Shown one piece after another: positions 2,825 to 50,234 of a stretch of 64,000 nucleotides of DNA (position 1 is its first letter; every line of letters starts with the position of its first letter). Source of the stretch: Escherichia phage vB_EcoM-101112UKE3-1; sequence record MZ234013.1; one strand, written 5' to 3'. A program made the translations under genes and the position numbers. The notes beneath the pieces were generated by a model. The model worked only from the letters and a program-made list of their open reading frames with translations. It had not been told where the DNA came from and did no database searches.

Positions 2825-3222
2825 TGGCAAATATTAATAAGCTTTATTCTGATATTGACCCAGAGATGAAAATGGATTGGAACAAAGACGTTTCAAGATC
2901 ACTTGGATTAAGGTCAATTAAAAATAGTCTTTTAGGAATTATTACAACAAGAAAAGGTTCAAGACCGTTTGACCCTGAATTTGGATGTGATTTATCAGAC
3001 CAACTTTTTGAGAATATGACTCCTCTTACTGCTGACACGGTTGAGCGTAATATCGAAAGCGCAGTAAGAAACTATGAGCCACGTATTGATAAATTAGCAG
3101 TTAATGTAATACCGGTTTATGATGATTATACTTTGATAGTAGAAATACGCTTTTCAGTCATCGATAACCCTGATGATATTGAGCAGATAAAACTACAACT
3201 GGCTTCCAGTAATAGAGTATAA
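2824..3222 (+). CDS. 25: baseplate wedge subunit gp25
   Basis: 132 aa, same length as T4 gp25; overlaps gene 26 stop. Confidence 0.9.
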   Translation: MANINKLYSDIDPEMKMDWNKDVSRSLGLRSIKNSLLGIITTRKGSRPFDPEFGCDLSDQLFENMTPLTADTVERNIESAVRNYEPRIDKLAVNVIPVYDDYTLIVEIRFSVIDNPDDIEQIKLQLASSNRV

Positions 3223-3288: not shown

Positions 3289-3702
3289 ATGAGATTAGAA
3301 GATCTTCAAGAAGAATTGAAGAAAGATGTATTTATAGATTCGACTAAATTACAGTATGAAGCAGCTAATAATGTGATGTTATATAGTAAATGGCTTAATA
3401 AGCATTCAAGTATTAAAAAGGAAATGCTTAGAATTGATGCACAGAAAAAAGTTGCTCTTAAAGCTAAATTAGACTACTACTCGGGACGAGGAGATGGTGA
3501 TGAATTTAGTATGGATCGTTACGAGAAATCAGAAATGAAGACAGTTCTATCAGCTGATAAGGATGTTTTAAAGGTTGATACCTCGTTACAGTATTGGGGG
3601 ATTTTATTAGATTTCTGTAGCGGAGCTCTTGATGCTATTAAATCACGTGGATTTGCTATTAAGCATATTCAAGACATGCGAGCATTTGAGGCTGGAAAAT
3701 AA
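3289..3702 (+). CDS. uvsY: recombination mediator UvsY
   Basis: 137 aa, matches T4 UvsY length and sequence (MRLEDLQEELKKDVFIDSTKLQYEAANN...). Confidence 0.9.
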   Translation: MRLEDLQEELKKDVFIDSTKLQYEAANNVMLYSKWLNKHSSIKKEMLRIDAQKKVALKAKLDYYSGRGDGDEFSMDRYEKSEMKTVLSADKDVLKVDTSLQYWGILLDFCSGALDAIKSRGFAIKHIQDMRAFEAGK

Positions 3703-43445: not shown

Positions 43446-44170
43446 ATGAAACTAATCTTTTTAAGCGGTGTAAAGCGTAGTGGAAAAGATACTACTGCTG
43501 ATTTTATCATGAGCAATTATTCTGCAGTTAAATACCAACTTGCTGGTCCTATTAAGGATGCATTGGCTTATGCATGGGGAGTATTTGCTGCAAATACTGA
43601 CTATCCTTGCTTAACTCGTAAAGAGTTTGAAGGAATTGACTATGATCGTGAGACTAATTTAAATCTAACTAAATTAGAAGTAATCACGATTATGGAACAA
43701 GCATTTTGCTATCTTAATGGTAAAAGCCCAATTAAAGGTGTGTTTGTTTTTGATGACGAAGGACAAGAATCAGTTAATTCCGTAGCATTTAACAAGATTA
43801 TTGACGTTATAAATAATATTGAAGATCAATGGTCAGTCCGTCGTCTGATGCAAGCCCTAGGTACGGATTTGATTGTTAATAACTTCGACCGCATGTACTG
43901 GGTAAAATTATTTGCTTTAGATTATCTTGATAAATTTAACTCAGGTTATGATTATTATATCGTTCCTGATACCCGTCAAGATCATGAAATGGATGCGGCT
44001 AGGGCGATGGGTGCTACAGTAATTCATGTAGTTCGTCCTGGTCAAAAATCCAATGATACACATATTACAGAAGCTGGATTGCCAATTCGTGATGGCGATT
44101 TAGTAATTACAAACGATGGTTCTCTTGAAGAACTTTTTTCTAAAATTAAAAATACACTAAAGGTACTATA

Positions 44171-44171
<1 letters not shown>
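43446..44171 (+). CDS. 1: dNMP kinase gp1
   Basis: 241 aa, same as T4 gp1; P-loop GVKRSGKDT. Confidence 0.9.
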
Positions 44172-44856
<685 letters not shown>

Positions 44857-44868
44857 TTTCACAAAGTT

Positions 44869-44898
44869 GTTTACATACTGATGAGGTAGTGATACTAT
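44869..44898 (+). promoter_or_regulatory. T4 early-type promoter with stem-loop (PeSL-like)
   Basis: gtttac -35, 18 nt spacer, TGaTACTAT extended -10; -10 sits in the loop of hairpin tgatgaggta/tacctcatca. Confidence 0.6.
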
Positions 44899-44929
44899 TA
44901 CCTCATCAAAATTAATTAGGAAAATAAAA

Positions 44930-45187
44930 ATGAAAACTTTCAAAGAGTTTGCTACAAAAACTACTATCACTGAATCTTCCCACGGTATGGAAGTAAAGCT
45001 TGGAATGGCTTTAGCTGAAGCTGAGCGTCTTTTCTCTCGTATTAAAGAACTTGCTGCTGCGGTCGATCCTTCATCTTTTAAAGGAGACCAAACTAAAGTT
45101 AAAGCACTTTTAGCATTATGCTCCGATGCAGGAGAAATTGCTAAAAATGGCTCTAAGATGAAGAAACGATTAGAAGATTTAAAATAA
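44930..45187 (+). CDS. internal-protein-like small protein with capsid-targeting-like N-terminus
   Basis: 85 aa; MKTFKEFATK...ITE resembles the T4 internal protein leader (MKTYQEFIAE) cleaved by gp21. Confidence 0.5.
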   Translation: MKTFKEFATKTTITESSHGMEVKLGMALAEAERLFSRIKELAAAVDPSSFKGDQTKVKALLALCSDAGEIAKNGSKMKKRLEDLK

Positions 45188-45199
45188 TTTCACAAAGTT

Positions 45200-45229
45200 G
45201 TTTACATAGGGTTTTAGTTGTGATACTAT
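45200..45229 (+). promoter_or_regulatory. T4 early-type promoter with stem-loop (PeSL-like)
   Basis: 32 nt identical to the 44869 copy, then a different stem (ataggg/ccctat) around the conserved gtgatactat loop. Confidence 0.6.
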
Positions 45230-45263
45230 TACCCTATCAAAACAAAACCAAATGGAAATCAAA

Positions 45264-45497
45264 ATGAAAACTTACCAAGAATTTATTGCTGAAACTGCTG
45301 ATGTAAAAGTTGAGTTTATTTACACTGGCAAGAAAGATAAAATGGGTGAAATGCCTCATGGAGTTCTTCGTGATGCATTAGATAATTTCGGTCAACTCGC
45401 CGCAGAAGATTACGGTGATAAAATTGTTGTTACTGGTCCTGCTGCAGTTATTGAAAAATGGGCAGCAGAAAATAAATCAATTTTTCGTAAAAAATAA
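45264..45497 (+). CDS. internal protein (IP) with canonical capsid targeting sequence
   Basis: Starts MKTYQEFIAE, the T4 IP leader; 77 aa from the ATG at 45264 (track ORF starts at an upstream ATG, 45252). Confidence 0.6.
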   Translation: MKTYQEFIAETADVKVEFIYTGKKDKMGEMPHGVLRDALDNFGQLAAEDYGDKIVVTGPAAVIEKWAAENKSIFRKK

Positions 45498-45527
45498 GTT
45501 TACTTTTAGATAGGGTAGTGATACTAT
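45498..45527 (+). promoter_or_regulatory. T4 early-type promoter with stem-loop (PeSL-like)
   Basis: gtttac, 18 nt, tgatactat inside hairpin gatagggtag/ctaccctatc. Confidence 0.55.
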
Positions 45528-45555
45528 TACCCTATCTACTACTGAGGAGAATAAA

Positions 45556-45741
45556 ATGAAACGTTGTGAATTAATTCGAAATGTTGCTATTGCAATTTCT
45601 GCTTCCGCTTTCAGTTTTTCAATGTTTGTTGGATTTATATGCGGATTATTGACTACGGCAGAAAATGTTTTTTCACTTGTAGTAGCATTTTTAATTGGTT
45701 TAATTGCTATTGTTATGGATAAAATTTCTAAAGGTGAATAA
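45556..45741 (+). CDS. small hydrophobic membrane protein
   Basis: 61 aa, two hydrophobic segments; SD gaggag. Confidence 0.45.
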   Translation: MKRCELIRNVAIAISASAFSFSMFVGFICGLLTTAENVFSLVVAFLIGLIAIVMDKISKGE

Positions 45742-46139
45742 TGAACGTTGAATATTATGTATATGCGGATTACGAAAATAATCCGTCTAAAGATGAAGAT
45801 AATCGTTTAGGTGTAGATGCTTTCGATTCCCCTGCGGCGGCATGGCAATGGGTTGAAAGAACCGATATTCCTTACCGTTATATTGAAGTGGTTGACCACG
45901 CAGGAAACAAGTATCCTAAGGAAGCATATGTTCCTTCCGGGAAGGTAAATTTCCTTTTGTTTGCAGGTGATAATTATTATCCACGTGGTGGGTATACCGA
46001 TTTAATCGCTAAAGCATTCTCTGAAGATGAACTCCGTGACATTATCAAAGAAAATGAAAACAAACCGATGGGTTCTAATCGCTTTGACTGGTGGCAAATC
46101 GTAAATGCCAATACTCATACTATTGTTGATGAAGGCTGA
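45741..46139 (+). CDS. hypothetical protein
   Basis: 132 aa ORF coupled (ATGA) to the upstream ORF. Confidence 0.5.
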   Translation: MNVEYYVYADYENNPSKDEDNRLGVDAFDSPAAAWQWVERTDIPYRYIEVVDHAGNKYPKEAYVPSGKVNFLLFAGDNYYPRGGYTDLIAKAFSEDELRDIIKENENKPMGSNRFDWWQIVNANTHTIVDEG

Positions 46140-46141
46140 TA

Positions 46142-46429
46142 ATGATTCTTTATGCTAAAGTATCATCCATTGAAAATGGATATAAATATGATCAAGAAGC
46201 AGCTAAAGCCTTGATTGATGATTATGGCATTTTAACCTGTTTTGAAGTTGAAAAGGTTTACATTGACCGTTCATCTTCTCAAGTTAAATTAGTGAAGGAA
46301 GACCGTAAATTTAACACAGTTAACTTTGATTTCTTTATTGAAACGGAAAAAGGTCCTCTTGAATATAATATTTTCAAGAATCCTTTGGGTCTTGAATGTA
46401 TCGTAAATACGTATTATCATAAATGGTAA
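46142..46429 (+). CDS. hypothetical protein
   Basis: 95 aa ORF immediately after the previous stop. Confidence 0.5.
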   Translation: MILYAKVSSIENGYKYDQEAAKALIDDYGILTCFEVEKVYIDRSSSQVKLVKEDRKFNTVNFDFFIETEKGPLEYNIFKNPLGLECIVNTYYHKW

Positions 46430-46526
46430 ATATGCTTTAAGAATTATTTGTTATTATTAACTCATATCGCACTGATTAATACCCTCTATCATCAAGGGTT
46501 CTTGCTTAAGAGCCTTTGTTAATAAT

Positions 46527-46599
46527 TGGGAATTAGCCAAGTTGGTAAGGCACTGGATTTTGATTCCAGGATGCAAAGGTTCGAGTCCTTTATTCCCAG
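46527..46599 (+). tRNA. tRNA-Gln (UUG)
   Basis: Cloverleaf by eye: acceptor tgggaat/attccca, anticodon loop ttTTGat, T-arm ggttcgagtcc. Confidence 0.85.
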
Positions 46600-46600
46600 C

Positions 46601-46687
46601 GCGAGAATGGCCAAATTGGTAAAGGCACAGCACTTAAAATGCTGCGGAATGATTTCCTTGTGGGTTCGAGTCCCACTTCTCGCACCA
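46601..46687 (+). tRNA. tRNA-Leu (UAA), class II, encoded CCA
   Basis: Acceptor gcgagaa/ttctcgc, anticodon loop ctTAAaa, long variable arm, gggttcgagtccc T-arm. Confidence 0.85.
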
Positions 46688-46692
46688 AATTT

Positions 46693-46766
<74 letters not shown>

Positions 46767-46776
46767 ATTTAATTTA

Positions 46777-46850
46777 CTCCGTGTAGCTCAGTTTGGTAGA
46801 GCGTCTGCTTTGGGAGCAGAATGTCGTAGGTTCAAATCCTGCCACGGAGA
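46777..46850 (+). tRNA. tRNA-Pro (UGG)
   Basis: Acceptor ctccgtg/cacggag, anticodon loop ttTGGga, T-arm ggttcaaatcc. Confidence 0.85.
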
Positions 46851-46852
46851 CT

Positions 46853-46939
46853 GGAGGCGTGGCAGAGTGGTTTAATGCACCGGTCTTGAAAACCGGCAGT
46901 CGCTCCGGCGACTCATAGGTTCAAATCCTATCGCCTCCG
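46853..46939 (+). tRNA. tRNA-Ser (UGA), class II
   Basis: Acceptor ggaggcg/cgcctcc, anticodon loop ctTGAaa, long variable arm. Confidence 0.85.
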
Positions 46940-46941
46940 TT

Positions 46942-47017
46942 GCTGATTTAGCTCAGTAGGTAGAGCAACTCACTTGTAATGAGAAGGTCGGCGGTTCGAT
47001 TCCGTCAATCAGCACCA
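46942..47017 (+). tRNA. tRNA-Thr (UGU)
   Basis: Acceptor gctgatt/aatcagc, anticodon loop ctTGTaa, ggttcgattcc T-arm, CCA. Confidence 0.85.
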
Positions 47018-47018
47018 A

Positions 47019-47095
47019 GGCCCTGTAGCTCAATGGTTAGCAGCAGTCCCCTCATAAGGGAAAGGTTACCAGTTCAAATCTGGTCTGGGTCACCA
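47019..47095 (+). tRNA. tRNA-Ile (anticodon CAU, lysidine type; a naive predictor would call Met)
   Basis: Anticodon loop ctCATaa, T-arm agttcaaatct, CCA; T4 carries a CAU-anticodon tRNA-Ile at this position. Confidence 0.8.
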
Positions 47096-47104
47096 AATTA
47101 ATTA

Positions 47105-47191
47105 GGGGAGTTATCCCGTAGAGGTAGCGGTGTGGACTGTAAATCCATTGTCATTGCGACTCGGGTGGTTCGACTCCATCACTCCCCACCA
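47105..47191 (+). tRNA. candidate tRNA-Tyr (GUA), class II with long variable arm
   Basis: Perfect 7-bp acceptor ggggagt/actcccc, anticodon loop ctGTAaa, 15-nt variable arm, T-arm ggtgg-ttcgact-ccatc, CCA; resembles E. coli tRNA-Tyr. Confidence 0.65.
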
Positions 47192-47237
47192 ATTTATGAC
47201 TCGTCGTGAGACGCTCAGTTCTTTATTAAGGACTGAT

Positions 47238-47903
47238 ATGCATTTTTATCTTTATAAAATAACAAATAAAATTAATAATAAAATTTATATTGGTGTGCAT
47301 TCTACCGAAAATTTAGATGATGGATATATGGGTTCTGGTAAATTATTAAAAAGAGCCCAAGACAGGTATGGTATAGAAAATTTTTCTAAAGAAATATTAG
47401 AATATTTTGATGATAAAGAATCTATGCTTGAAGCCGAGAAAAATATTGTTACAGAAGAGTTTTTAAATAGACCAGATGTGTATAATTTAAAACTTGGCGG
47501 TGAAGGCGGATGGGATCATATAAATATTCCTGAGATGCTAAATCAGAAGAAAGACGCTAGTTTAAAAGGAGCTAAATCGTTTAAGTCACGTTTTAAAAAT
47601 GATATTTTACTTCAAGAAAAATATCGTCAAAATGGTTCAAATGTATTTAAACGTTTATGGTCAACTCCTGAATACAAGGAAAAATTTTTAAATAATAGCA
47701 GATTTTTAAATAAGCATCATACTCTTGAAACTATTAATAAAATGAAAGAAATTCACGCTAAAAATAATCACCAGAAAGGTGAAAAGAATTCCCAATTTGG
47801 TATGATGTGGATTCATTCATTAGATGAAAAAGTTTCTAAACGTATTAAGAAAACTGACCCAATTCCAGAAGGATGGTTTAAAGGTCGAAAAATGAAATTT
47901 TAA
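47238..47903 (+). mobile_element. segB: GIY-YIG homing endonuclease SegB in the tRNA cluster
   Basis: MHFYLYKITNKINNKIYIGVHST...GYMGSG GIY-YIG motif; 221 aa from the ATG at 47238, as T4 SegB; the longer track ORF would start inside the tRNA. Confidence 0.8.
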
Positions 47904-47908
47904 ATTAC

Positions 47909-47983
47909 GTCCCGCTGGTGTAATGGATAGCATACGATCCTTCTAAGTTTGCGGTCCTGGTTCGATCCCAGGGCGGGATACCA
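47909..47983 (+). tRNA. tRNA-Arg (UCU)
   Basis: Acceptor gtcccgc/gcgggat, anticodon loop ctTCTaa, T-arm cctggttcgatcccagg, CCA. Confidence 0.85.
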
Positions 47984-47989
47984 AATGAG

Positions 47990-48296
47990 AAACCGGGTCG
48001 CTACCGGTAAGTCGTCGGACTGATGTTCCCTGTTTAAGGACTGGCATTAATAAATCTTTATGTTTTGTTAATGCCCCCTTATATCACAGCAGAAACGGCG
48101 CACCGAATTATCGATTCGAGGAAATATCTTTGCCATAAGCCGAGTAGCGTTTTTGACGGAACGTTCGGATATGGTCGAGATATGGCCTTTTAAAAATATT
48201 GAGTAGCGTCAACTGCTTAATAACCGGGTTCGAATCCCGGCGTTTCGTACAAACACTTGCCTTAGCAGGTGGAACCCCGACAAGGTTGCCGCAAGG
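47990..48296 (+). ncRNA. candidate small stable RNAs downstream of tRNA-Arg (T4 species 1 / species 2 RNA-like)
   Basis: About 300 nt with no ORF, GC-rich helices and a tRNA-like T-arm (ccgggttcgaatcccgg); T4 has rnaC/rnaD next to tRNA-Arg. Boundaries not determined. Confidence 0.3.
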
Positions 48297-48330
48297 CTTA
48301 GCCCCGACCGAAAGGTTGGGGCTTTTTAGT
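48297..48330 (+). terminator. rho-independent terminator (copy 1 of a duplicated terminator)
   Basis: cttagccccgaccgaaaggttggggcttttt: 8-bp stem, GAAA loop, T-tract; followed by TATAAATA at 48330..48337. Confidence 0.65.
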
Positions 48331-48373
48331 ATAAATAAGTATATTAAAACCCCGAATTAAAACAGGAAATAAG

Positions 48374-48847
48374 ATGAAATCATATACTCAATTTTTAAAT
48401 GAAGCGGTGTTAAATGAAGCATCTAGCACTGAAATTCAAGCTGTTGCAAAAGCTGCCATTGCCGCGGGTAAATATTCCTATAAAGATGCTTCCGATGAAT
48501 CACGATTCCAATTTGCTCGTGATATGAAAGCCGAAGGATTTACAGGGAATGCAGTTAGTATGGCTTGGAAAAGTTTAGTTGCTACTGGAGCTGCTTTTGC
48601 AAAGGCTTCAGGTAAACCTGCTCCTAAAGCAGATCCTAAAGTCACACAAGAGAAAAATATTGTTAAAGGAATTATCTCCAAATATGAAGCTATCCTTAAA
48701 GAGCTTTTAGTAATCAAAACTGAAGGCCAAAAGCTAGCTCGTGCTTATAGTTTCAAAGATAACCCACATGTTCACTCTCTTGAGTATGTTGAAGACATCC
48801 AAAAAATTATTAAAGACCGCATTTGGTCTGCTAAACAAATCAAATAA
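48374..48847 (+). CDS. internal-protein-like protein with capsid-targeting-like leader
   Basis: 157 aa; MKSYTQFLNE-A resembles the IP leader; late promoter box about 37 nt upstream; flanked by duplicated terminators. Confidence 0.5.
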   Translation: MKSYTQFLNEAVLNEASSTEIQAVAKAAIAAGKYSYKDASDESRFQFARDMKAEGFTGNAVSMAWKSLVATGAAFAKASGKPAPKADPKVTQEKNIVKGIISKYEAILKELLVIKTEGQKLARAYSFKDNPHVHSLEYVEDIQKIIKDRIWSAKQIK

Positions 48848-48851
48848 CATT

Positions 48852-48885
48852 CTTAGCCCCGACCAAAAGGTTGGGGCTTTTTGGT
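48852..48885 (+). terminator. rho-independent terminator (copy 2, near-identical to 48297..48330)
   Basis: cttagccccgaccaaaaggttggggcttttt. Confidence 0.65.
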
Positions 48886-49015
48886 ATCTAGGCCTTTCCG
48901 GGCCTCTCTAGACATCATTTAGTTTCTACCCTTTATAATATATTATCCTATCTTTTAATTGCCCCTCCCTGCCCTAGAATTCCCTAAAACTTTTTAAAAA
49001 TTTTTTCACAAAACT

Positions 49016-49045
49016 GTTTACATCCCTGTTCTTCCATGGTACTAT
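49016..49045 (+). promoter_or_regulatory. T4 early-type promoter (class with tggtactatacaactatc)
   Basis: gtttac, 18 nt, TGgTACTAT; same module at about 59868 and 63456. Confidence 0.55.
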
Positions 49046-49087
49046 ACAACTATCAACTACTGATACAAAAACAACTTGGAGAATGAA

Positions 49088-49351
49088 ATGGATAATTACG
49101 GCGAACTGTTCAACTTCTTTATGAAATGTGTTTCAGAAGATTTCGGTCGTACAGTGAATGATATTAAAGTTATCGGTCCTGACCATCCGATGTTTGAAAC
49201 CTATGCAGTAATGGGTAATGAAGATGGTCAGTGGTATACTGTAAAGGTTGTGATTAACATGTTCACTGCTGAAGGTTATGTTAAACTGTCTTCTAAAGTT
49301 TACCATGATAACGATGAAATCGCAGAAGAATATTTCAATAATATGAAATAA
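49088..49351 (+). CDS. hypothetical protein
   Basis: 87 aa from the ATG at 49088 (SD ggag); track ORF starts at a TTG at 49076. Confidence 0.5.
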   Translation: MDNYGELFNFFMKCVSEDFGRTVNDIKVIGPDHPMFETYAVMGNEDGQWYTVKVVINMFTAEGYVKLSSKVYHDNDEIAEEYFNNMK

Positions 49352-49420
49352 TTGTGTACAAACGCCAAGGACGGTGTTATTATAGACTTATCAAAACAAA
49401 TACAGAAAACGGAGAAATAA

Positions 49421-49597
49421 ATGACTACTTTAATTATTTGGTTCGACGAAAATGAAGAAACATACTGCGTGAACATTGGCGAAAGCCCAATGCCAGAATT
49501 TGAATCTTCGGATAAAAACTCGGTTGTATCTTGGGCTGAAGGTTATAAAGCAGCAAAAGGCGATGTTGAAATAGTTTACAAACTATCCGGAGTATAA
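49421..49597 (+). CDS. small hypothetical protein (58 aa)
   Basis: Hand-translated MTTLIIWFDENEETYCVNIGESPMPEF...; SD ggag; below track cutoff; preferred over the antisense track ORF 49434..49622. Confidence 0.4.
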   Translation: MTTLIIWFDENEETYCVNIGESPMPEFESSDKNSVVSWAEGYKAAKGDVEIVYKLSGV

Positions 49598-49640
49598 TAC
49601 TCTCATGGATTTTAAATCTCAATTAACCTAAGGAAATACT

Positions 49641-50234
49641 ATGAACACACTGAAGAAAATTGTTGAGTTTATTCGCACTAAACTTGGTTCTGCTATGGCT
49701 AAAAATCTATCTGTCGAAGAACAGTATACTGCTGCAGCAGCAAAACTACTTGATAAAATTAAAGATCTAAAAACTGCTTCTGTTAAATCTATTAACGAAG
49801 AAAAACGTATTCGTGAACTTGTTATCGAAAAGAATCGACAGGCCGAATCAAAAGAGCGTGAAATTCGTAAACTTCTTTCCGAAGGCCAAGATGTAACAAT
49901 GCATGCTAAACTCGGTTTACTATATCGTCGAACAGCTGAGCAGTTGACTACTAAGGCTGACGGTTATGCTGAAATGCGAATTGAAATCGCCAAGAAAGTA
50001 GTTGAGTTAGATGATGCTCGTCAAGAACTTGCGGTTAAATTGGAATATATCCGTGAAACTCGTGCAGCAAATGCCCTTGGAATTAGTACTGCCGATGATG
50101 TAGTTGAAATTGCAGCACTGACTAAGGTTGATATTGAAGATACCCTTGCTCGAGTTGAAACCTTTAACGGTAATATTTCTGGGGTTGAAACTACCTCTGC
50201 CGATGTTCAGGAATACATTAATTCTCTGAAATAA
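49641..50234 (+). CDS. hypothetical coiled-coil protein
   Basis: 197 aa, heptad-rich charged sequence; SD aaggaa. Confidence 0.55.

Follow-up and report, generated by a model that had tools for sequence, protein, structure and literature searches.

The window, as we call the 64,000-nt stretch of Escherichia phage vB_EcoM-101112UKE3-1 (MZ234013.1) analysed here, comes not from T4 itself but from a T4-like Tequatrovirus whose closest record over positions 44000-50000 is Escherichia phage UPWr_E4 (98.5%). ARAGORN places a cluster of nine tRNA genes at 46527-47983, the eighth of which is a tRNA-Tyr(gta) gene of 87 nt on the plus strand at exactly 47105-47191. An earlier sequence-only reading of this DNA had proposed a class II tRNA-Tyr(GUA) at the same coordinates, and the features on which it drew, a perfect 7-bp acceptor stem, a CTGTAAA anticodon loop, a 15-nt variable arm, a TTCGACT T-loop and an encoded CCA, are all present in the ARAGORN call. 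The gene is preceded on the same strand by the tRNA array Gln-Leu-Gly-Pro-Ser-Thr-Ile (46527-47095; ARAGORN and Rfam), which ends 9 nt before it. It is followed by segB (47238-47903, plus strand), encoding a GIY-YIG homing endonuclease of 221 aa (Pfam PF01541, 26.1 bits against a cut-off of 22.6), and by tRNA-Arg(UCU) (47909-47983, plus strand; ARAGORN and Rfam), which forms the downstream flank of the segB module. Two stable RNAs, rnaD (species 2) and rnaC (species 1), lie 3' of tRNA-Arg at approximately 47985-48250 on the plus strand and are near-identical to those of T4 and T6.

Anatomy of the tRNA-Tyr gene

The acceptor stem joins GGGGAGU (47105-47111) to ACUCCCC (47181-47187) in seven of seven Watson-Crick pairs, five of which change on both sides across the family, and is followed by the discriminator A (47188) and the encoded CCA (47189-47191), all on the plus strand, as are the remaining elements. 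A 4-nt connector, UAUC (47112-47115), separates the acceptor and D stems according to the alignment, RNAalifold and the fit of the Rfam model. In the D arm (47116-47130), CCGU (47116-47119) pairs with GCGG (47127-47130) around the loop AGAGGUA (47120-47126), an assignment drawn from pair counts and RNAalifold. The anticodon arm (47132-47148) has the stem GUGGA/UCCAU and the loop CUGUAAA, with the anticodon GUA at 47139-47141; 100% of its alignment cells are paired and three of five pairs change on both sides. The variable region, UGUCAUUGCGACUCG (47149-47163, 15 nt), forms a covarying 3-bp stem, GUC/GAC, with the loop AUUGC and is identical to that of phage T6. It includes C48 (47152), the position cut by Septu PtuAB in the tRNA-Tyr of both T6 and E. 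coli (PMC13096335). The T arm (47164-47180), with stem GGUGG/CCAUC and loop UUCGACU, is 98.8% paired across the family, with double-sided changes in four of five pairs.

Compared with the general features of such tRNAs, the gene has the acceptor stem with G1:C72, A73 and CCA, an anticodon arm with U33 and a purine at 37, a UUCRANU T-loop and a long variable arm. A paired D arm with A14, R15, G18-G19 and A21 appears only when the D stem is read in a shifted register, and the connector has 4 nt rather than the 2 nt of positions 8-9. The identity elements of bacterial TyrRS are G1:C72, A73, G34-U35-A36 and the long variable arm, and the window gene has every one of these. Together these data support the assignment of the gene as a genuine class II tRNA-Tyr(GUA).

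Scores from standard models were less clear-cut. The gene reached 30.2 bits with the Rfam tRNA model (RF00005), marginally above the cut-off of 29, while its eight neighbouring tRNAs scored 48.8-72.9 bits. A tRNA-Sec identity was rejected, the match to RF01852 being 34.4 bits, below the cut-off of 47, and the anticodon being GUA; this match stems from the length of the variable arm and from the additional bases on the 5' side. Minimum free energy folding of the lone window sequence gave z = -0.91 and no cloverleaf. Single-sequence folding is usually uninformative for tRNAs, and this result was not used as evidence.

Covariation, the D-arm register and the connector

We aligned the window copy with 15 other phage and plasmid copies (74-98% identical to the window) and with E. 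coli tyrU. When the cloverleaf was imposed on this 17-sequence alignment, 96.8% of cells were standard pairs and 15 of 24 pairs showed double-sided changes, values reached by none of 500 shuffles. Sliding the 3' partners by 1-3 columns as a control lowered pairing to 44-57%. RNAalifold, applied to 13 phage copies with no structure supplied, arrived at the identical cloverleaf, compensation being seen in 14 of its 24 pairs. Compensatory changes are present in all five helices, including the variable-arm stem, in which U-A becomes C-G in five sequences, while no variation occurs in the anticodon loop, T-loop, A73 or CCA across the alignment. The features of a tRNA-Tyr occur here far more than chance would give.

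The D arm, which the sequence-only reading had described as imperfectly paired, proved to be intact; the imperfection is an artefact of the register adopted by ARAGORN. That register pairs raw positions 10-13 with 23-26 and was rejected, as it leaves only 63.2% of cells paired and a C.C mismatch in 16 of 17 sequences. The shifted register, in which raw positions 12-15 (CCGU) pair with 23-26 (GCGG), is paired in 97.1% of cells across the same alignment, and two T5-family copies, NBSal005 and VAC35, carry a C-G to U-A double change in this stem. RNAalifold independently selects the shifted D-stem and leaves columns 8-11 unpaired. The Rfam model selects it too, but slides the acceptor stem by 2 and accepts mispairs in doing so.

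Given a D-stem at raw 12-15/23-26, the connector is 4 nt long rather than the usual 2. In canonical tRNAs the acceptor and D stems lie 2 nt apart, and the marginal Rfam score (30.2 against 29) arises because the model can fit the longer connector only through the acceptor slide. The 'pseudo' labels in some records have the same cause, a 4-nt connector in place of 2. By established tRNA numbering of the D-loop positions, the equivalents of A14, R15, G18-G19 and A21 are at their canonical places in the loop, which is AGAGGUA in the window and AAGUGGUA in T5-like copies. Across the family the connector begins with a conserved UA followed by two variable bases, and the Entb_43 and ESCO5 copies have a 5-nt connector. 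We considered whether the two extra connector bases pair with the constant UCG that follows the variable stem, and dropped the idea, since those connector bases vary, the UCG does not and covariation is absent.

We also scanned IMG/VR for class II GUA tRNAs with a matching T-loop, which gave 101 distinct sequences, and scored their D-stems at connector lengths of 1-6 nt. Fully paired (4/4) D-stems were found in 25 sequences at 2 nt and in 25 at 4 nt, against 1, 4, 2 and 0 at 1, 3, 5 and 6 nt, respectively; choosing the best of six registers somewhat inflates these pairing counts. Two such sharp peaks would not be expected by chance. The 4-nt group includes divergent D stems, CAGG/CCUG, CCCG/CGGG and UCAG/CUGA, for which the canonical register yields 0-2 pairs. 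A third group of class II tRNA-Tyr in IMG/VR (for example, those starting GGGGAAATATGCATAGTGGCGATTGC; 14 distinct sequences) fits best with a 3-nt connector and 3-4 D pairs, and connector length in phage tRNA-Tyr may be more varied than 2 or 4 nt. We found no description of a 4-nt acceptor/D connector in phage tRNAs in the searchable literature.

The tRNA-Tyr-segB module and its relatives

In T4 (NC_000866) only 41 nt separate tRNA-Ile from segB and there is no tRNA-Tyr, in agreement with the proposal of the sequence-only reading that the gene is additional to the eight tRNAs of T4. The gene is carried by T6, T2L and RB3, and alignment of the window and T6 with T4 shows its absence from T4. 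T6 (AP018814 / MH550421) has the same arrangement as the window: tRNA-Ile, a 9-nt spacer, tRNA-Tyr, a 46-nt spacer and segB. The block that the window and T6 have in common, and that T4 lacks, runs from immediately after the tRNA-Ile discriminator to the first few codons of segB. SegB begins MHFYLY in the window and MFYYTY in T4; the window protein is identical to that of T6 at 221 of 221 residues and to that of T4 at 209 of 221. The tRNA-Tyr genes of T6 and the window agree at 85 of 87 positions (97.7%), including the whole variable arm and its GUC|A site. The two transitions, U41 in T6 for C41 in the window (anticodon stem) and C74 in T6 for U74 in the window (T stem), are both G-C/G-U swaps inside stems. 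T6 lacks tRNA-Pro and tRNA-Ser, both of which the window keeps, giving it nine tRNAs. The window phage therefore combines the T4 tRNA set with a T6-type Tyr-segB module.

Some smaller differences accompany this block. The CCA of tRNA-Ile is encoded in the window (47093-47095) and in T6, and not in T4 (near position 3461 of the compared T4 locus). Both tRNA-Ile and tRNA-Tyr end in CCAA, and CCAR is the context after which SegB reportedly cuts (PMC2330249). The T6 record also annotates a tRNA-Thr(UGU) (positions 1348-1422 of the compared T6 locus) that ARAGORN does not call, while the window tRNA-Thr is called at 46942-47017.

The module is bounded by a short repeat. ATTAG occurs at the 5' edge of tRNA-Tyr (47101-47105, plus strand) and again inside the 3' part of segB (47819-47823, plus strand), at an offset of exactly 718 bp, and the T6 pair has equal spacing. 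A 5-mer alone is weak evidence, since 6 of 201 offsets give a match of at least 5 nt, and the pair carries weight because its spacing matches the published T6 unit. From the sequence, recombination at this pair would drop approximately 26 C-terminal residues of SegB; the amplification junction of T6 has a 28-aa SegB truncation (PMC13096335). No sigma-70-like site was found between tRNA-Ile and tRNA-Tyr, and a promoter scan for a dedicated tRNA-Tyr promoter gave sites no more numerous than in shuffled sequence. The common strand and 9-nt gap suggest that tRNA-Tyr is co-transcribed with the upstream array.

SegB cuts within tRNA genes, including the tRNA-Tyr of T2L (PMC2330249). The exact SegB SITE-seq motif, RAWTSGAAC, is absent from the window tRNA-Tyr and occurs in tRNA-Gly, tRNA-Thr and rnaC; it is not enriched in the window, with 11 matches against 5.8 expected and 5 of 100 shuffles reaching 11. 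The rnaC match (48228-48236) lies in its 3' part, which also contains a tRNA-like T-arm, GGTTCGAATCC, and a weak tRNA-Sec-model match at 48156-48248. Upstream of segB, a 9-bp hairpin, TCAGTTCTT-TATT-AAGGACTGA (47215-47236, plus strand), ends 1 nt 5' of the ATG and holds the likely Shine-Dalgarno sequence AAGGA; the T4 sequence here is unrelated. This hairpin could limit SegB translation.

The tRNA regions of T2L, RB1 and RB3 (EMBL AJ880101, AJ884577 and AJ884578), which contain tRNA-Tyr, were sequenced in 2008 (Brok-Volchanskaya et al., PMC2330249). The RB3 copy is a 100% match to the window tRNA-Tyr together with its 9-nt upstream spacer. Unlike the window, these three phages lack segB and have a different tRNA-Tyr neighbourhood, which in T2L is Met-Tyr-Asn-Arg with two ORFs (PMC2330249). 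More distantly, sampled copies of the T5-family lineage (T5, SP15) are about 80-84% identical to the window, and resemble it in the variable arm, GUCAUUGCGAC or a near variant, in the 4-nt connector and in the D arm.

A resemblance to E. coli tRNA-Tyr, also claimed by the sequence-only reading, holds in part. The host genes tyrU and tyrT are likewise class II, with the CUGUAAA loop, the GUC/GAC variable stem, A73, G1:C72 and CCA, and have the same 20 nt between acceptor and anticodon stems, but overall identity to tyrU is only 65%. Those 20 nt are also arranged differently. In E. coli tRNA-Tyr the connector is 2 nt, the D stem 3 bp plus a G.A pair and the D-loop 9 nt, and the variable loop is shorter; the lengths of connector, D stem and D-loop in the window gene are 4 nt, 4 bp and 7 nt. 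A host-derived copy of tyrT or tyrU is ruled out by the 65% identity and by the absence of any match to the window tRNA-Tyr on E. coli chromosomes (distant blastn, E up to 10; 5,426 complete genomes).

The same 5,426 genomes gave 273 matches in 269 genomes, all on plasmids of approximately 70-120 kb and 90-94% identical to the window. The one plasmid inspected, NZ_CP024264.1 (copy at positions 3001-3087 of the extracted locus), is linear and 72 kb long; it carries four clustered tRNA genes (Asn-Tyr-Thr-Ser) alongside genes for a DNA ligase, a PhoH fragment and a tyrosine recombinase, and looks like a phage-plasmid. The 87-nt sequence also matched 1354 phage records, which comprise T4-like, rV5-like (LL12, 96.6%), Karamvirus (93%), Phapecoctavirus (86%), Felix O1-like (84-87%), T5-like (81-84%), Klebsiella T4-like (81%) and Enterococcus phages (approximately 78%). 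A scan of GTDB genomes of 185,579 species with a narrow D-arm and anticodon pattern, which bears on the chromosomal rarity of this lineage only and not on 4-nt-connector tRNAs with other D-loops, gave 42 matches, five of them true family members. All five have the 4-nt connector; the other 37 are chance matches that lack a T arm. The tRNA-Tyr lineage is borne by mobile elements, its carriers being E. coli plasmids and phages of at least six groups.

Annotation of the lineage is uneven. A tRNA-Tyr is annotated in T6, T2L, RB3, PST and hundreds of other records, while the copy in AYO145A is labelled 'tRNA-Pseudo-GTA', that in NBSal005 'tRNA-OTHER', and those in ESCO5, SUSP2 and Enterococcus phage EFGrNG are unannotated. 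The inconsistently annotated copies are L004 1496-1583, L006 401-488, L007 401-488, L010 401-487, L012 401-488 and L013 396-483 in our compared loci. ARAGORN makes no call for four family copies (Entb_43, ESCO5, SUSP2 and EFGrNG). Phage LL12 further carries a 99-nt tRNA-like gene (L003 1892-1990), called by ARAGORN as tRNA-??? with a four-base anticodon (atcc) and annotated as tRNA-Lys with 'isotype prediction inconsistent'.

Function and competing explanations

The function of this tRNA has been addressed experimentally in close and distant relatives. PtuAB of Septu EcB88 cuts the tRNA-Tyr of E. coli at C48/A49 and that of T6 at C48, in the variable arm (Chihara et al., Nat Commun 2026, PMC13096335). 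The same study detected T6 tRNA-Tyr by northern blot and tRF-seq, and found that its overexpression rescues T6, that deletion of the tRNA region sensitises T6 to Septu, and that T4, which has no tRNA-Tyr, cannot escape. T6 escapers amplify a 718-bp unit of tRNA-Tyr and segB in a SegB-dependent manner (PMC13096335). The T6-type tRNA-Tyr is itself cut by Septu EcB88, relies on gene dosage and seems less stable than the host tRNA (PMC13096335), which makes its benefit a matter of quantity and leaves wild-type T6 with partial protection only. In a separate system, the retron-Eco7 effectors PtuAB degrade tRNA-Tyr and a T5-family phage tRNA-Tyr restores infection, an effect abolished by anticodon or stem mutations (Azam et al., Nat Commun 2024, PMC11555353). 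The T5-family tRNA-Tyr has its own strong promoter and is reported to be resistant to retron-Eco7 cleavage (PMC11555353).

The window gene is orthologous to a characterised anti-PtuAB tRNA-Tyr, being 97.7% identical to that of T6 at the same genomic position. The PtuAB target C48 is present in GUC|A within a variable arm identical to that of T6, and SegB and the ATTAG pair form a putative 718-bp amplification module. We put at roughly 80% the probability of the reading that follows from this: a functional tRNA-Tyr from a mobile-element lineage, with an anti-PtuAB role and SegB/ATTAG amplification. At 97.7% identity, the window copy is likely to behave as the T6 copy does in expression, charging and defence phenotype. 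The conserved identity elements and the T5-family anticodon mutants likewise point to probable aminoacylation by TyrRS and use in translation, on the assumption, drawn from the genetics, that TyrRS and the ribosome accept the 4-nt connector.

These data allow us to propose a sequence of events. The host TyrRS probably charges the tRNA-Tyr, which is likely to be transcribed along with the rest of the phage tRNA array. For the phage, the tRNA-Tyr would serve chiefly to sustain tyrosine decoding while PtuAB-type nucleases (Septu, retron-Eco7) cut the variable arm of tRNA-Tyr, and the protection would be dose-dependent. Breaks that the neighbouring SegB can probably introduce into the tRNA region may then lead, through recombination between the ATTAG copies spaced by 718 bp, to tandem tRNA-Tyr/segB amplification and with it to more tRNA-Tyr under Septu pressure.

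A simpler account would be plain supply, in which the gene raises tRNA-Tyr abundance for a late phage proteome rich in tyrosine and in TAT, independently of defence, as in classical codon compensation. Tyrosine makes up 4.41% of the 16,419 codons in 54 long ORFs of the window, a share higher than that of E. coli, and 79% of these codons are TAT. Codon compensation is also cited as the prevailing view in the discussion of the Septu study (PMC13096335). Tyrosine is, however, read by the anticodon GUA alone, one that the host already possesses, and the gene brings no additional decoding capacity, whereas the anticodons of the other eight phage tRNAs are of the U34 or lysidine type and read A-ending codons. 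Moreover, T4 does without tRNA-Tyr on a similar genome, the sensitivity caused by the T6 tRNA-region deletion is specific to Septu, and the escapers amplify exactly tRNA-Tyr (PMC13096335). We doubt that supply is the principal explanation, although it is compatible with a defence role and plausible as a contributor.

The phage tRNA could instead serve mainly as a decoy that soaks up PtuAB and spares the host tRNA-Tyr, rather than in decoding. T6 tRNA-Tyr is cut by Septu at the same C48 as the host tRNA, within a GUC|A kept in the window, overexpression of the phage tRNA partly suppresses degradation of host tRNA-Tyr, and the authors themselves write of a 'decoy or supplement' (PMC13096335). 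In the T5 family, on the other hand, a change of anticodon alone ends the rescue from retron-Eco7, which points to decoding (PMC11555353). A pure decoy would also have no need of the TyrRS identity elements and encoded CCA, all of which are conserved family-wide. A mainly decoy function is therefore improbable.

The suggestion of the sequence-only reading that this might be a pseudo-tRNA or processing element, which we extend to a degenerate sequence that no longer acts as a tRNA and is retained for RNA processing or as a recognition or homing site for SegB, could appeal to the marginal Rfam score, the tRNAscan-derived 'tRNA-Pseudo-GTA' and 'tRNA-OTHER' labels, the four members missed by ARAGORN and the SegB cut inside T2L tRNA-Tyr (PMC2330249), but is largely refuted and in effect excluded by covariation and the T6 RNA data: the stems covary in all five helices around an intact D arm, no change is seen in the anticodon loop, T-loop, A73 or CCA, the 4-nt connector explains the low scores, exact RAWTSGAAC is absent from the gene, and the 97.7%-identical T6 copy is detected as a functional RNA (PMC13096335).

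A further, tentative idea concerns the connector. The tRNA-Tyr of phages and phage-like plasmids might form a distinct structural class, with a conserved UA+NN connector of 4 nt, a D stem of 4 bp and a D-loop that is short and canonical, nearly confined to mobile elements and kept for altered handling by defence nucleases, modification enzymes or TyrRS. In the resident class II tRNA-Tyr of bacteria the connector measures 2 nt, the D stem has 3 bp and the loop is large. Were this so, which we consider rather unlikely, standard tRNA finders would systematically under-call or mislabel an anti-defence tRNA.

The window tRNA-Tyr gene and its function are already known and are not a new discovery; the connector architecture is the only detail that is possibly new. 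For annotation, a marginal covariance-model score or a 'pseudo' label in this lineage reflects the 4-nt connector and not decay; such copies are best regarded as probably functional, whether they come from rV5-like, Felix O1-like, T5-like or Klebsiella phages or from phage-plasmid-like replicons of E. coli. In practice, phages with tRNA-Tyr and segB have a published route of escape from Septu-type defence that T4 does not, a difference that matters for predicting the behaviour of therapeutic phages on hosts with tRNA-targeting defences.
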